Shown here: piece after piece, positions 12,221 to 17,461 of the stretch
Numbering within the stretch: position 1 is the first letter of the stretch
How the letters are laid out: every line of letters begins with the position of its first letter
Assembly: GCF_016903815.1 (NCBI RefSeq)
Contig: NZ_CP069975.1
Length of the DNA stretch: 41,445 nt
Source: Escherichia coli
GTDB taxonomy: Bacteria; Pseudomonadota; Gammaproteobacteria; Enterobacterales; Enterobacteriaceae
Strand: one strand, 5' to 3'
The notes under the pieces: model-generated
The model's input: the letters and a program-made list of their open reading frames with translations, nothing else
Told to the model about the DNA's origin: nothing
The model's database searches: none
Translations under genes and position numbers: made by a program

Positions 12221-12868
12221 TCACCATTCATAGGGTAAATTAAGCGCTTTTAAACCTTGCTGGAAAGTATTAAGAGATCCGTTTTTTTGTTGTTCCATTT
12301 TTTCGCGTGCAGCTTTCTCATACTGCTCCATCCGTTGGTTATACTCTTGCAATTCCTCCGGGGAGAGGTTTCCCATTGGGGAGTTTGTACCCGGCCCCCT
12401 GGCTCGTTCTTCAAGCGTACCCTGTACGTTTTGATGGCGCATTCCTGGGGCATTTCTTATTGAGTCAATGCCATTTCTTCCAACATCTTCTTTATTAACG
12501 GCATTGCTCGCCACCAGCACACCCCAGCTAGGGATAGCAAAATCAGGAGCGGTTTCGCATGCCTTTACCATATAATCGAAAGTGCTTCGATTGATCTCGT
12601 TTGCGTCGGGATTTAACAGGCTAGAATATTGATATTTAGCATTTTCGTTGGTTGCGACTTTATACAGTTCTTGCTGCACCATCGCTTCAGAAAGTTTAAG
12701 GCGTTTCATATCTGACAGTAACTTCTTGCGCATGGATTCGTCTTGACTGACAGCAAAGCCGTAAACGTGCCCAAGGTATTTCGTATAATCGGTACAAATC
12801 TCCTTTACGCTTGATGCTGCATTAACAGTCCCAGCCATAAATAATAACGGTAGTAATAGTTTTCTCAT
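12221..12868 (-). CDS. Sim-like superinfection-exclusion periplasmic protein (signal peptide; shares a segment with Sit)
   Basis: ORF track 12221..12895; start placed at ATG 12868 (GGTGAGG RBS) giving signal peptide MRKLLLPLLFMAGTVNAAS. Mature part contains NAPGMRHQNVQGTLEERARGPGT, matching Sit residues GRGMRREVVQGTLEERARGKGT. Location between the tube-region genes and the immI-like region matches P1 sim. Confidence 0.6.
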   Translation of the reverse strand: MRKLLLPLLFMAGTVNAASSVKEICTDYTKYLGHVYGFAVSQDESMRKKLLSDMKRLKLSEAMVQQELYKVATNENAKYQYSSLLNPDANEINRSTFDYMVKACETAPDFAIPSWGVLVASNAVNKEDVGRNGIDSIRNAPGMRHQNVQGTLEERARGPGTNSPMGNLSPEELQEYNQRMEQYEKAAREKMEQQKNGSLNTFQQGLKALNLPYEW

Positions 12869-12964
12869 TATAACCTCACCTGCCTTATAACTCATTTAGG
12901 GTACATATTTTCGCCTTTAAAAAAAAGAGGTTATTAGATCCAATTGTGTATTTATTAAGCATGC

Positions 12965-12981
12965 AATGCTCTAATAAATTT
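12965..12981 (+). promoter_or_regulatory. C1-repressor operator-like 17-mer overlapping the -35 of the immI-like promoter
   Basis: AATGCTCTAATAAATTT is 16/17 to the P1 C1 operator consensus ATTGCTCTAATAAATTT as I recall it. ATGCTC, 17 bp, TAAGTC forms a plausible -35/-10. Confidence 0.6.
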
Positions 12982-13139
12982 GTATTTTTAAGTCGCGAAT
13001 GCTATCTTTTCGCATCATATTGACCTTTTAATCGTTCAGGCTTATAGTTCCGCCGTCGTAGCAAATTCTGCGACCGGGTTTAGCAGCCTGAATACTTACG
13101 CGGACAACCGCAGATTTCCGATATTGCGGTATTTTTGTG

Positions 13140-13240
13140 TCCGTAAACCACGTTACGCCCGAATTATGGTGGGGCGTGATGGGGAGGCTTCGGCCTGCTG
13201 GTTTCGTAAGTGCCAGTCTGCTAACCCCGTCACGTCCTGC
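13140..13240 (+). ncRNA. c4: c4-like antisense RNA region (immunity I), approximate boundaries
   Basis: Non-coding stretch between the operator and icd. Contains CTGCTAACC (13218-13226), complementary to the GTTTAGCAG elements at 13079-13087 and 13246-13254 in the icd leader. Boundaries are not determinable by eye. Confidence 0.4.
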
Positions 13241-13293
13241 CACCTGTTTAGCAGCGGGTCGCAGGTTGTTTATCAACTTACGAGGCCGTAACT

Positions 13294-13515
13294 ATGGTTA
13301 ATGCCAATCCTTGCGCACGCCAAGAATTCATCTGGCGTTTCTATTCCTGTAAAAAACACCACTATCACTTCGTTATCGCAGCAACAGAAGACGAAGCACG
13401 CTCTCAATTGCCTGATGGCCCCTGCATTTTTACTGCCCGTTTTTCAACTAACTCGCGCAATTCACTTAGTTACTGGAGCCTCCCCTTCTCTGCCGACGTT
13501 CAGGGGGGTTTATGA
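13294..13515 (+). CDS. icd: Icd-like small protein (interference with cell division), translationally coupled to ant
   Basis: 73-aa ORF; GAGG RBS 7 nt upstream; stop TGA overlaps the ant ATG (ATGA at 13512-13515). Confidence 0.6.
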   Translation: MVNANPCARQEFIWRFYSCKKHHYHFVIAATEDEARSQLPDGPCIFTARFSTNSRNSLSYWSLPFSADVQGGL

Positions 13516-14546
13516 AAACACCTCTCGTCACCCGTAATGAAATAGCCGAAGCGATCGCCTTGCATACTGCCTGTATGCCGACACGGGAGATCCCCGGCGC
13601 AATTGCTAACTATTTCATGATAACCAGACGTTTTTATACCCGAACAGATAAGGCTGTGATCAACAGGCTACTGATAGCCGAGATCAGGGATTATTTGATT
13701 GAACAAGGACGTCTACGTTACGCAACAGTGGCAGCAGAAATGAGAAAGGAGGCACATAGAATGACCGGTAATAATTTAAATGTTGAAAAACCAGCACCTG
13801 TTGCTTCAGCTACGCCAGCACCAGCCCTGAATGTCATCTCCAACACCGGAGACACAATCGACAGCCAAACATTGTTGAAGATGGTCAATGAGGCACGGAA
13901 ATTATGTAGCGAAAAACCAGTTCGCAACAATGATTTCATTGCCAGAGTTAAGGATGAGCTTGAAGGAGAAACCTACGAAATTTTCGTAGGTCAAAAAAAC
14001 GGCGCAGAAATAGATATTATAACCATGACCTACAAACAAGCCCTGCGAGTTGCCGCGCGCGAGTCAAAAGCGGTCCGCCGTTCGCTGATCGACAAACTGG
14101 AAGAATTACAGCAGGCAAACTCCCCTACCCCATCGATCCCCCAGACATTACCAGAAGCCCTACGCCTGGCTGCCGAGTTAGCAGAACAGAAAATGCAGTT
14201 GGAACAACAGCTGGTGGCCGCAGCCCCTAAAGTCGATTTTGCCGACCGGGTATCAGTGGCCAATGGAATCCTGATCGGGAACTTTGCAAAGGTCGTTGGA
14301 CTTAAGCAAAACGCCCTTTTCTCATGGTTGCGCCAGAATGGCATTCTCATGGCTTTTGGAGCGCGCAAAAACGTACCGCGCCAACAGTACATCAACGCCG
14401 GGTATTTCACGGTGAAAGAAGTGGTGCTGGATGATGAAAATGGCTACCAGATACGGCTGACGCCCCAATTAACGGGTAAAGGCCAGCAGTGGTTAACTCG
14501 CAAGCTACTTGATGCTGGTTTGTTAAAACCAGTAGCAATAGGTTAA
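13512..14546 (+). CDS. ant: Antirepressor Ant with C-terminal KilAC-type domain
   Basis: 344-aa ORF; C-terminal ~130 aa (LPEALRLAAELAEQK...GKGQQWL) is about 65% identical to the C-terminus of the downstream KilA-like protein. Confidence 0.7.
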   Translation: MKTPLVTRNEIAEAIALHTACMPTREIPGAIANYFMITRRFYTRTDKAVINRLLIAEIRDYLIEQGRLRYATVAAEMRKEAHRMTGNNLNVEKPAPVASATPAPALNVISNTGDTIDSQTLLKMVNEARKLCSEKPVRNNDFIARVKDELEGETYEIFVGQKNGAEIDIITMTYKQALRVAARESKAVRRSLIDKLEELQQANSPTPSIPQTLPEALRLAAELAEQKMQLEQQLVAAAPKVDFADRVSVANGILIGNFAKVVGLKQNALFSWLRQNGILMAFGARKNVPRQQYINAGYFTVKEVVLDDENGYQIRLTPQLTGKGQQWLTRKLLDAGLLKPVAIG

Positions 14547-14710: not shown

Positions 14711-15511
14711 ATGCAACAAACATTCAATGCGGATATGAATATATCAAACCTTCATCAAAATGTCGATCCTTCAACCACTCTGCCCGTTATTTGTGGTGTT
14801 GAAATTACGACCGACCGCGCTGGCCGTTACAACCTTAATGCTCTACACAGAGCGAGCGGACTCGGTGCCCATAAAGCGCCAGCTCAATGGCTAAGAACGC
14901 TGTCAGCAAAACAGCTCATCGAAGAGCTTGAAAAAGAAACTATGCAGAATTGCATAGTTTCGTTCGAAGGCCGTGGCGGCGGCACTTTTGCCCATGAATT
15001 GCTCGCTGTGGAGTACGCAGGCTGGATTTCTCCCGCGTTTCGGCTGAAGGTAAACCAGACATTTATCGACTATCGAGCCGGAAGATTACAACCTGCTATT
15101 CCGCAGAGTCTCCCTGAAGCTCTCCGTTTGGCTGCCGACCTGGCAGAGCAAAAGCAACGGCTGGAGCAAAAAATGCTTATGGATGCACCTAAAGTCGAAT
15201 TCGCCGAACGCGTTGCTACCGCCAGCGGGGTTCTAATCGGCAACTATGCCAAAGTGCTCGGCCTGGGCCAAAACTATCTCTTCACCTGGTTGCGTGATAA
15301 CGGAATTCTGATCGCAACCGGTGAACGCAGGAACGTCCCCAAACAAGAATACATATCCCGTGGGTATTTCACCCTTAAAGAAACCGTGATCGATACAAGC
15401 AATGGAAGCAGGATTTCTTTCACGACTCGTATAACCGGCAAAGGTCAGCAGTGGCTGATGAAGCGATTGCTTGATGCTGGTGTGCTGGTACCTGTCGCGG
15501 CAACGCGCTAA
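14711..15511 (+). CDS. kilA: KilA-like protein (KilA-N domain plus KilAC domain)
   Basis: 266-aa ORF; GGAGA RBS; N-terminal KilA-N-like segment; C-terminal domain paralogous to Ant. Confidence 0.7.
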   Translation: MQQTFNADMNISNLHQNVDPSTTLPVICGVEITTDRAGRYNLNALHRASGLGAHKAPAQWLRTLSAKQLIEELEKETMQNCIVSFEGRGGGTFAHELLAVEYAGWISPAFRLKVNQTFIDYRAGRLQPAIPQSLPEALRLAADLAEQKQRLEQKMLMDAPKVEFAERVATASGVLIGNYAKVLGLGQNYLFTWLRDNGILIATGERRNVPKQEYISRGYFTLKETVIDTSNGSRISFTTRITGKGQQWLMKRLLDAGVLVPVAATR

Positions 15512-15540: not shown

Positions 15541-16386
15541 ATGCTGGCTAAAGTCACTTTCCTGAGCTGTATAACGATGAGCGATTTTACTTTTTCTGGC
15601 TATGAATTGGCCTGCTTTGTAACACACTCCGGTCTATCCCGTAGCACCTGGCATATCCTGTCGCAATGTGCAAATCTCGCGGCAACAACCAGTGAATACT
15701 TCATTCACAAGCCTCACCGCCTGATCGCGGCAGAAACTGGTTATAGCCAATCAACCGTCGTTCGTGCATTCCGTGAAGCTGTAAACAAAGGAATTCTGTC
15801 TGTAGAGATTGTTATCGGCGATCACCGTGAACGTCGCGCTAACCTGTACCGGTTTACGCCATCCTTTTTGGCCTTCGCACAACAAGCCAAAAATGCGCTG
15901 ATTGAAAGCAAATTAAAGATCTCTTCAGCGGCAACCAAGGTTAAAGCTGTTCTCGCTAAGACATTGGCTTTATTTAATTTTTTATCCACACCCCCATGTC
16001 AAAATGATACCCCCTCCCCCTGTCAGGATGACGTGGCAATAAAGAATAAGAAGTCACAAGTTAAAAAAACAAAAAGATCAGTTTCCGGCGGTGCCGGAAC
16101 GAGCAGACTCAAAAAATTGACTTCATGGATCGCTGAGGCAAAAGCAAAGGCTGACAATCTGCGGTTATCCAAAAAGCGCGCTCAAAAACATGAGTTCAAG
16201 CAGAAAGTAGAGGCGGCAGCGCGGAAATATGCTTACCTGAAGAACAAGCGTTCTCCTGATATTGGCGGGGTATCAAACTTCGATAATTTGCCGCATTGCA
16301 TGACGGTAAACGAAGCTCTTAATGCGGTTTTAGCCAAAAATAAAGATAACGAACAATGGGGTATACCGGCAGGATTCAGAGGGTGA
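15541..16386 (+). CDS. repL: RepL-like lytic replication initiator
   Basis: 281-aa ORF immediately after kilA under the same operator-controlled promoter, as in the P1 lytic replicon; basic C-terminal half. The alternative start at ATG 15577 cannot be excluded. Confidence 0.6.
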   Translation: MLAKVTFLSCITMSDFTFSGYELACFVTHSGLSRSTWHILSQCANLAATTSEYFIHKPHRLIAAETGYSQSTVVRAFREAVNKGILSVEIVIGDHRERRANLYRFTPSFLAFAQQAKNALIESKLKISSAATKVKAVLAKTLALFNFLSTPPCQNDTPSPCQDDVAIKNKKSQVKKTKRSVSGGAGTSRLKKLTSWIAEAKAKADNLRLSKKRAQKHEFKQKVEAAARKYAYLKNKRSPDIGGVSNFDNLPHCMTVNEALNAVLAKNKDNEQWGIPAGFRG

Positions 16387-16682: not shown

Positions 16683-16864
16683 TACAATCGTTGCGGGTGC
16701 TTGAGGCTATCTGCTTCAGGCATTACCCGAAAAGCAGATAGAAGAAAGCCCCAGATAACATTACGCGTCCTGCAAGACGCTTAACATTAATCTGAGGCCA
16801 TATCTATGCTTAGCATACGTAGATTAACCCTCTCCCCTTTTAAGGAGCAAGGAATTTTTTACTG

Positions 16865-17461
16865 CTATGCCGCATTTCCAATTATGGATTCAGCGACCAG
16901 AACAACCCCATGCTTACTTCGATCTGGGTGTTCACTCCATATCTCGGATTCAGGAATACTTACCCCGTCATAGCAAACACGTTCGCCGTCAAACGGGTAA
17001 TACTGAGCGGCATCGGTGTCAAGGATAAACACTTTTAGCTCGGAAGAGCGACGGGCGATGTGTTGCCAAAGAGCTTTTCCACCTTCGTATTGCTCATTAT
17101 CACTGAGCAAAACAACACCAGCTTTTGAGGCTACGGTTTCGTAAACAAAAGTAGCTAAACCGACATCCCGGACGGTTCCATCAACCACGATACCTTCAAT
17201 CTGGGCAACATCGCTATCCTCCCAGAACTTCCTTACCAGTACGCCTTCAAGCTGCGGGCGACGTTGAAGTTCAAGAGTAGCGACAACCTTATGGCGCATA
17301 TCACCATCGATAACAGAAGGCGCAGCCTCTATTACAGCTGCAAATGGGGTTTTGGAATCCCATATAACCTGGTAAAGCACACCCTGGATGGTAACTCCGT
17401 CCAGGATCGAAAATCGACGAGCGACAGTACCCGGGGAGTACGACATTGGAATCACAGCCAT
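16865..17461 (-). CDS. Hypothetical protein (P1 PmgF-like by position)
   Basis: ORF track 16865..17497; start placed at ATG 17461 with strong RBS AAGGGGGA. Confidence 0.5.
   Translation of the reverse strand: MAVIPMSYSPGTVARRFSILDGVTIQGVLYQVIWDSKTPFAAVIEAAPSVIDGDMRHKVVATLELQRRPQLEGVLVRKFWEDSDVAQIEGIVVDGTVRDVGLATFVYETVASKAGVVLLSDNEQYEGGKALWQHIARRSSELKVFILDTDAAQYYPFDGERVCYDGVSIPESEIWSEHPDRSKHGVVLVAESIIGNAA

Follow-up and report, generated by a model that had tools for sequence, protein, structure and literature searches.

By its sequence, the window (the whole stretch of Escherichia coli DNA analyzed here, 41,445 nucleotides of contig NZ_CP069975.1) is a P1-like punavirus, and its positions 12965-13296 are an immI leader with a c4 antisense-RNA switch. 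In P1, the plasmid prophage remains lysogenic because c4 prevents expression of the Ant antirepressor, and exclusion or tolerance of a related phage depends on the short recognition sequences of c4. An earlier note, made from the letters alone, had proposed a c4-type antisense RNA in the icd-ant leader of this DNA. That proposal is borne out by two Rfam matches above cut-off, by the mapping of the P1 features onto the window, by the Icd-like and Ant ORFs downstream and by compensatory changes among homologues. The sequence elements, the structure, the compensatory conservation and the family memberships described below were observed directly. It is highly probable that the full P1/P7-type c4/icd-ant control model applies to this leader, the processing, repression, Rho polarity and immunity phenotype being carried over from P1/P7; no feature of the sequence speaks against it. 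The module is already known, and its mechanism is neither categorically new nor altered; only the pair of a and b alleles differs from P1 and P7.

The c4 module in the immI leader

The Rfam model for C4 antisense RNA (RF01695) was matched over its full length (model positions 1-87) at 13162-13247, with a score of 70.8 bits against a cut-off of 45 and E = 3e-13. The c4-a1b1 target motif (RF03163) was found at 13042-13094 with 56.2 bits, above its cut-off of 46.7, which places the sequence in that family. An Rfam scan of the whole window confirmed the C4 match, and no second c4 copy was found in the 41-kb window at the Rfam gathering level. For the 700 bases round the leader, identity to the immI regions of P1, P7, SJ46, RCS47 and other punaviruses is 94-99%, and the first 25 kb of the window show 96-97% identity to P1-like phages. 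Features were transferred by alignment to the annotated P1 sequence NC_005856 (operator, two promoters, a1, b1, c4, a2, b2, icd and ant1/2), and all those annotated in P1 immI could be placed on the window. The resulting layout is that of the P1-type immI operon, with the C1 operator and promoters upstream and icd, then ant1/ant2, downstream. The elements are as follows.

12965-12981, plus strand: C1 repressor operator (Op51 / Oc4), AATGCTCTAATAAATTT, identical by alignment to the protein_bind feature of P1 NC_005856
12980-13008, plus strand: promoter P2c4 (former P51a), overlapping the operator; transferred from P1, where the sequence is identical
13020-13048, plus strand: promoter P1c4 (former P51b), TTGACC-17 nt-TATAGT; 10 of 12 consensus matches, same position in P1
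13055-13074, plus strand: hairpin 1 of the a1b1 motif, GUCGUAG / CUGCGAC, from the Rfam c4-a1b1 structure
13075-13090, plus strand: hairpin 2, CGGG / CCUG, with a1 in its loop, from Rfam c4-a1b1
13080-13086, plus strand: target site a1, UUAGCAG, from the P1 annotation by alignment
13094-13100, plus strand: target site b1, ACUUACG, from the P1 annotation by alignment
13101-13143, plus strand: nested terminator-like hairpin, from covariation and the isrK alignment
13168-13244, plus strand: c4 antisense RNA, 77 nt, with ends taken from P1; no indels relative to the annotated P1 c4 misc_RNA
13205-13211, plus strand: b' recognition element, CGUAAGU, exposed by the second c4 hairpin in a loop of 9 nt; from the fold and exact complementarity to b1/b2
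13218-13224, plus strand: a' recognition element, CUGCUAA, in a 7-nt unpaired c4 junction; from the fold and complementarity to a1/a2
13248-13254, plus strand: target site a2, UUAGCAG, 4 nt past the c4 3' end, from the P1 annotation by alignment
13255-13288, plus strand: predicted local stem-loop that takes in b2 and some of the Shine-Dalgarno sequence, from minimum-free-energy folds
about 13276-13283, plus strand: target site b2, ACUUACG, with pairing extendable to 13287, from the P1 annotation by alignment
13294-13515, plus strand: icd, 73 aa, cell-division inhibitor and predicted direct c4 target; NCBIfam phage_ICD_like, 52.3 bits, cut-off 25
13512-14546, plus strand: ant1 antirepressor, 344 aa; Pfam ANT/KilAC, 106.4 bits
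13761, plus strand: in-frame start of ant2, transferred from the P1 annotation

A consensus promoter scan did not pick up P51a. From P51b, transcription is predicted to start at about 13055, which is the first base of hairpin 1. The a1b1 motif has the expected two-hairpin architecture: the second hairpin carries a1 in its loop, and b1 lies directly 3' to that hairpin and is single-stranded in the predicted fold, in agreement with the supplement of PMC2864571.

The earlier note had suggested structure and duplex prediction as a check on its proposal, and the predicted structure has the shape to be expected of a c4 RNA. Folding of the 77-nt c4 sequence yields the C4 architecture at -45.7 kcal/mol (z = -5.2): a closing stem of 17 bp encloses one hairpin with a UUCG cap and another whose loop has 9 nt. 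The stem leaves a free 3' ACC tail resembling a tRNA acceptor end, and the position and length of the element match those of the annotated P1 c4 exactly. When the full 257-nt leader is folded, cis pairing is predicted for a1:a' and b1:b', which fits the idea of an inactive unprocessed precursor.

Both copies of GTTTAGCAG described in the earlier note are present on the plus strand, at 13078-13086 and 13246-13254, and correspond to sites a1 and a2; the motif has 3 matches in the 41 kb of the window where 0.32 are expected, and none of 100 shuffled sequences reached 3. The CTGCTAACC element (13218-13226) had been described as complementary to both copies. This holds for 7 contiguous base pairs (CUGCUAA/UUAGCAG), but not for the full 9-mer, since the 7 pairs are followed by one C.U mismatch and then one G-C pair. 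The motifs of the earlier note thus make up the a set only (a1, a' and a2), CTGCTAA being a'. A second triplet, absent from it, consists of ACTTACG at 13094-13100 and 13276-13282 with the complement CGTAAGT at 13205-13211; by the P1 alignment, these are b1, b2 and b', respectively.

The second triplet bears on the statement that the target sites overlap the icd ribosome-binding region. The b2 site does reach it, but neither copy of GTTTAGCAG does: a2 ends at 13254, 28 nt upstream of the icd Shine-Dalgarno sequence GAGG (13282-13285), and for that reason cannot occlude it. Only b2 runs into this sequence, which lies 8 nt before the icd AUG. As in other C4 RNAs, the complements of a' and b' follow downstream on the strand of c4 itself, a2 coming first and b2 falling on the ribosome-binding site of the ORF that comes next. 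The cognate b':b2 duplex is predicted to extend to as many as 12 bp (ACUUACGAGGCC, 13276-13287), with an energy of -18.6 kcal/mol, and to cover the GAGG. By contrast with a':a1 (-14.6 kcal/mol), a':a2 alone is predicted to be weak (7 bp, -9.0 kcal/mol). There is an extra pair on the a1 side, 13076:13228, which is G-C, A-U or G-U in all 49 distinct homologous leaders collected as described below and never A.C. The icd stop and the ant1 start overlap in ATGA at 13512-13515.

Studies by Citron and Schuster of 1990/1992, Biere et al. of 1992 and Hartmann et al. of 1995 are said to have established that RNase P cuts the 5' end of P1 c4, and reportedly also that ant depends on icd translation, with Rho-dependent polarity. 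On the P1/P7 model, transcripts of the window operon would start at P51a, which the C1 operator overlaps, and at P51b, and would carry, in order, a1/b1, the c4 element, a2/b2, icd and ant1/ant2. The 77-nt c4 (13168-13244) would be cut from the same transcript as its target. The mature RNA, with its long stem and two hairpins, would expose b' in a hairpin loop and a' in an unpaired junction, and these would pair in trans with a2 (13248-13254) and b2 (13276-13287) on the icd-ant mRNA. The b':b2 duplex would cover the icd Shine-Dalgarno sequence and leave icd untranslated. No antirepressor would then be made, because ant1 would be translationally coupled to icd through the ATGA overlap and because untranslated mRNA undergoes Rho-dependent termination in P1; C1-dependent lysogeny would be kept. 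Sites a1 and b1 would compete for a' and b', either holding c4 inactive in cis in the precursor or titrating it in trans. The scheme of a'/b', a1/b1 and a2/b2, together with a proposal of competition, is summarized in the PMC2864571 supplement, and c4 is described as a repressor of Ant synthesis in PMC12197685 and PMC8198154.

Compensatory change in homologous leaders

Homologues were collected with a 25-nt invariant core of c4, which found 118 IMG/VR stretches; six phage records and the window were added. The set comprises 125 c4 modules with 49 distinct 270-nt leaders, and 119 of the modules have complete flanks. Conservation of complementarity in homologues had been set beforehand as one point on which the c4 reading could be refuted, and across the 49 leaders complementarity is kept through compensation. 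Taken together, a':a2 and b':b2 are paired in 98.3% of cells, and 8 of their 14 pairs show double changes that compensate; for b':b2, compensatory changes are seen at 6 of the 7. An alignment shift in one divergent sequence accounts for the few cells without a pair. On the upstream side, pairing reaches 99.9% for a1:a' and b1:b' together, and 10 of the 14 pairs show compensatory changes: a1:a' is maintained without exception (100%; 4 of 7 pairs compensatory), and b1:b' is 99.7% paired (6 of 7). In control comparisons, shuffles always fell short of the values observed, and pairing dropped to 23-38% when the partner was shifted by 1-3 columns. A search independent of the alignment found exact complements of a module's own a' and b' both upstream and downstream in 118 of the 119 modules with complete flanks.

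The structures that carry these elements are conserved as well. In all 49 leaders the c4 stems stay fully paired (100%), and 3 of their pairs are compensatory. The first hairpin of the a1b1 motif is paired in 99.4% of cells and shows compensatory changes at 5 of 7 pairs, and hairpin 2 is 99.5% paired. The survey of alleles identified at least 3 a alleles, 8 b alleles and 13 combinations, and the preservation of exact complements despite such varied alleles is strong compensatory evidence.

The same pattern of variation bears on the historical view of c4 as a protein. ORFs of 55 aa (13124-13291) and 54 aa (13137-13301) span c4, the record X15639 labels c4 as a CDS, and the JL22 record has a hypothetical protein annotated over it, all of which would favor a region encoding a small protein instead of an RNA regulator. 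However, the 49 leaders vary only in blocks that are complementary to one another and at stem positions that compensate, and not at codon third positions, the matches to RNA families are strong, and c4 has been identified as an RNA in the literature (PMC12197685, PMC2864571). The RNA-type pattern of variation rules out a protein-coding reading of the ORFs over c4, and the chance that the region acts through a small protein is negligible.

The earlier note had also pointed to two octamers flanking the GTTTAGCAG copies, CTGCGACC (13068-13075) and GGTCGCAG (13257-13264), as mutually complementary. In the window their complementarity is indeed perfect, and 87.8% of cells are pairable across homologues; a helix between them, spanning about 190 nt, would close a domain running from a1 through c4 to a2 and bring together both copies of GTTTAGCAG. 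There is, however, no conserved helix. CTGCGACC is nearly invariant but its partner varies, being GGTAGCAG in P1 and P7 and GGGCGCAG in 813R1, and the central pair is standard in only 16 of the 49 leaders and broken in the other 33. The pairing shows no covariation, its observed scores were reached by 31 to 483 of 500 shuffles, and in two divergent homologues (L014 and L017) the complementarity is lost while every other element is kept. Nor is the number of CTGCGACC-type octamers in the window above chance (0.86 would be expected and 3 were found, a number that 3 of 100 shuffles attain). Each octamer has a local setting instead. CTGCGAC, within CTGCGACC, is the 3' arm of hairpin 1, whose local partner GUCGUAG shows 5 compensatory pairs, and GGTCGCAG sits in the 5' arm of the predicted local hairpin round b2. 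The long-range pairing was rejected as a candidate on these grounds, and we regard the closing helix as very improbable. The local stem-loop at 13255-13288 is predicted in the window and in 14 distinct homologous leaders, and in the window the UCG of GGTCGCAG pairs with the CGA of b2. Its energy in the window is no better than that of shuffled sequence (z = -0.27), and the fold is a weak candidate explanation of GGTCGCAG.

A terminator-like hairpin downstream of the a1 and b1 sites

A nested hairpin lies between b1 and c4. Its outer stem, CGGACA / UGUCCG, joins 13101-13106 with 13138-13143, and its inner stem, ACCGCAG / UUGCGGU, joins 13107-13113 with 13124-13130, with a run of five U residues at 13132-13136. 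A consensus terminator scan of 12850-13650 called nothing; the hairpin loop of 10 nt exceeds the 8-nt limit of the scan, and the hairpin at 13107-13130 was for this reason assessed by covariation. Among homologues, 98% of cells in the nested hairpin are paired, with 5 compensatory pairs. The Rfam model of the Hfq-binding sRNA IsrK (isrK, RF01394) aligns end to end with 13055-13136, but its score of 47.9 bits is below the cut-off of 50. Scores for P1, P7 and D6 are 35.1, 43.7 and 46.5, respectively, and only the divergent homologue L017 passes, with 51.3. Since the score falls below the cut-off, we use the term IsrK-like and leave the element outside the family.

There is a likeness to the IsrK/STnc1160/orf45-anrP locus of the Salmonella Gifsy-1 prophage (RF01394; PMC4825925). 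There, as predicted for the window, two 5' hairpins, a single-stranded stretch and a terminator hairpin are found upstream of a processed RNA and of an antirepressor gene expressed by translational coupling, and a short RNA is complementary to a downstream RNA. The Gifsy-1 model differs in that it is framed in terms of alternative mRNA structures and not of c4-type a'/b' pairing. As compared by description, the CI RNA of satellite phage P4, with seqA/seqC, is also processed from the leader of its own operon and has complementary sites on both sides (PMC4825925), but the outcome there is premature transcription termination of replication genes and not a block of a ribosome-binding site. In P22, the small RNA sar likewise blocks translation of the antirepressor (ant) mRNA (PMC12197685). 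However, sar is made from the strand opposite its target and is a true cis-antisense RNA, whereas c4 comes from the same strand and transcript as its target and pairs through two short dispersed elements.

Two further roles are conceivable for a1/b1 and the adjacent hairpin. One is that a1/b1 and the terminator are released as an IsrK-like RNA of about 82 nt (13055 to about 13136), which would titrate c4 in trans as a decoy and so switch icd-ant translation on. This would complement the main model and compete only with a purely cis role of a1/b1. The isrK model fits from end to end, position 1 of that model coincides with the predicted P51b start, and the stem and U-run are conserved with compensatory pairs. 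In Gifsy-1, the equivalent terminator marks the end of the short IsrK, which acts in trans to promote translation of the read-through antirepressor mRNA, and the processed downstream RNA STnc1160 is complementary in part to IsrK (PMC4825925). This trans activation matches the competition role proposed for a1/b1; the competition of a1/b1 with a2/b2 is a proposal of Citron and Schuster, as relayed in the PMC2864571 supplement. The predicted preference of a' for a1 over a2, with the extra covarying pair, points the same way. On the other side are the scores below cut-off in the window, P1, P7 and D6 (35 to 47 bits), a U-run of only 5 and a loop of 10 nt, with no call from a simple terminator scan. 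Moreover, transcription has to pass this point to reach c4, icd and ant, which leaves room for no more than partial termination. The papers searched contained no report of a short a1b1 RNA in P1-like phages. A released decoy RNA is a plausible product of this leader, but one that we put forward only tentatively.

The other, P4-like role is that c4, by binding a1/b1 on the leader as it is transcribed, controls whether transcription terminates at the neighboring hairpin; a1/b1 would then autoregulate transcription of c4, icd and ant and not serve as a decoy. The last base of b1, 13100, is immediately followed by the outer stem of this hairpin, from 13101 on. P4 SeqA has been named a structural homologue of IsrK, and termination has been raised as a possibility for STnc1160 (PMC4825925). 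However, no alternative anti-terminator pairing was identified in the leader, and the behavior of STnc1160 upon co-expression in Gifsy-1 is unlike that of a termination factor (PMC4825925). Such control of termination is unlikely.

Alleles and predicted immunity specificity

The earlier note had further suggested a comparison with the P1/P7 c4 sequences as a guide to immunity specificity. In the window, the a allele is P7-type (UUAGCAG / CUGCUAA) and the b allele is SJ46/D6-type, a pair unlike those of P1 and P7. Relative to P1, the immI region has the same order of parts, with identical operator, promoters and c4 scaffold and 94% identity overall, and a c4 of 77 nt without indels. Between the two c4 sequences there are 8 differences (five in b', two in a' and one at stem position 61), with matching changes in a1, a2, b1 and b2. 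The P7 c4 (AF503408) has the same architecture and the same a allele, and its 4 differences all lie in the b' loop (CGUAAGU in the window versus CACAAUC in P7); the P7 b1 and b2 sites carry changes that match. Compared with D6, b' is identical and there are 3 differences (2 in a' and stem position 61). The 270-nt leader at 13051-13320 is base-for-base identical in Salmonella phage SJ46 (KU760857) and in 15 IMG/VR contigs; in the SJ46 record, c4, the target sites and icd are unannotated. Homology to SJ46 starts at position 12967 of the window, and upstream of this point the window resembles P1.

Duplex predictions follow these differences. The window b' is predicted to pair at -18.6 kcal/mol with its own b2, at -8.4 kcal/mol with the b2 of P1 and at -9.2 kcal/mol with that of P7. 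From its differences from the c4 of P1 and of P7, we therefore predict that the window c4 should act as a repressor on the operon it belongs to and on that of SJ46-type phages, but not on that of P1 and probably not on that of P7. Its immI is predicted to be heteroimmune to P1, and probably also to P7.

In the allele survey, each allele changes in step at three places, the upstream site, c4 and the downstream site. The a/b type of the window was found in 20 of the 125 modules. Anecdotally, where two c4 modules reside on the same contig or in the same genome, the pair differs in the b allele (7 of 7 pairs), as also happens in about 20% of random draws. A two-part combinatorial immI code, taken jointly with a1/b1 and the terminator acting as an IsrK-like c4-titrating RNA, has in our estimate somewhat less than an even chance of being correct. 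No paper on a combinatorial code or an a1b1 decoy in P1-like phages was found in the literature searched. If the code is real, the window would represent a common immunity type (20 of 125) orthogonal to P1 and P7. If the decoy is real, the switch would be a three-RNA circuit of decoy, antisense RNA and mRNA.

The analysis provides a testable call of specificity; only the allele survey and the IsrK-like terminator go beyond routine annotation, slightly, and both are modest additions. There is value for annotation as well, in that the same sequence stands unannotated in SJ46 and some phage records give c4, or ORFs across it, as coding. Resistance genes are spread among Enterobacteriaceae by P1-like phage-plasmids, and for this reason an immunity barcode made up of the a and b alleles would be useful: it could help to predict which P1-like phage-plasmids coexist or superinfect.

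Mosaic structure and genes flanking the immI promoter

The extents of homology to related phages place a mosaic joint at the promoter flank of the immI leader, beside two divergent ORFs that adjoin the promoter:

12900-12967, mosaic joint
12221-12895, (-) strand, ORF of 224 aa
11693-12169, (-) strand, ORF of 158 aa

Homology to phages SJ46, P7 and RCS47 starts at 12967, within the C1 operator, whereas homology to P1, 813R1 and Ro157c2YLVW extends farther upstream, to 12900. The window therefore joins an SJ46-type leader to a P1-like upstream flank. In P1, the position of the two ORFs is held by the sim genes. Both predicted proteins have signal-peptide-like N-termini; neither gave a match in a Pfam scan, and an NCBIfam scan, which covered just the 224-aa protein, was likewise negative.

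Genes and RNA features downstream of ant1

The following features were identified 3' to the antirepressor gene ant1:

14711-15511, (+) strand, KilA-like protein bearing a KilA-N and an ANT/KilAC domain, immediately 3' of ant1
15541-16386, repL-like ORF, after the KilA-like gene
16695-16869, (+) strand, sok antitoxin (CssrC), Rfam match of 94.7 bits (cut-off 59)
34445-34598 and 36226-36301, (+) strand, three tRNA genes, namely Asn(GTT), Thr(TGT) and one with the anticodon CAT, assigned to Met

The order of ant1, the KilA-like gene and the repL-like ORF, the last of which had no family match, is the same in P1, where kilA and repL belong to one operon (PMC8201110). The sok match sits shortly 3' of the repL-like ORF, and among the ORFs listed around it there was no obvious candidate for a Hok-like small hydrophobic ORF. 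The three tRNA genes presumably match the tRNA cluster of P1-like phages.

An IsrK-like hairpin and the c4 modules

Between b1 and c4 in the immI leader lies a further, conserved element:

13101-13143, nested hairpin followed by U5

When the a1b1 hairpins together with this nested hairpin were compared with the Rfam isrK model, the score was 47.9 bits, under the cut-off of 50. This resemblance suggests that the leader gives rise to a short transcript of the IsrK type or includes a site of attenuation.

The c4 region is treated inconsistently in public records. Neither c4 nor icd is annotated for SJ46 (L003 in our survey of c4 modules); an 'Icd' ORF of 417 nt spans c4 in 813R1 (L005); an annotated hypothetical protein covers it in JL22 (L006); and in X15639 c4 is entered as a CDS.

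Some surveyed modules occur in pairs, either on one contig (L070/L071, L075/L076) or in one IMG genome (L045/L046, L049/L050, L054/L055, L065/L066, L026/L027). The b alleles differ in 7/7 pairs. Such a difference would be expected if co-resident c4 modules need orthogonality, but ~20% of random draws would also yield 7/7.
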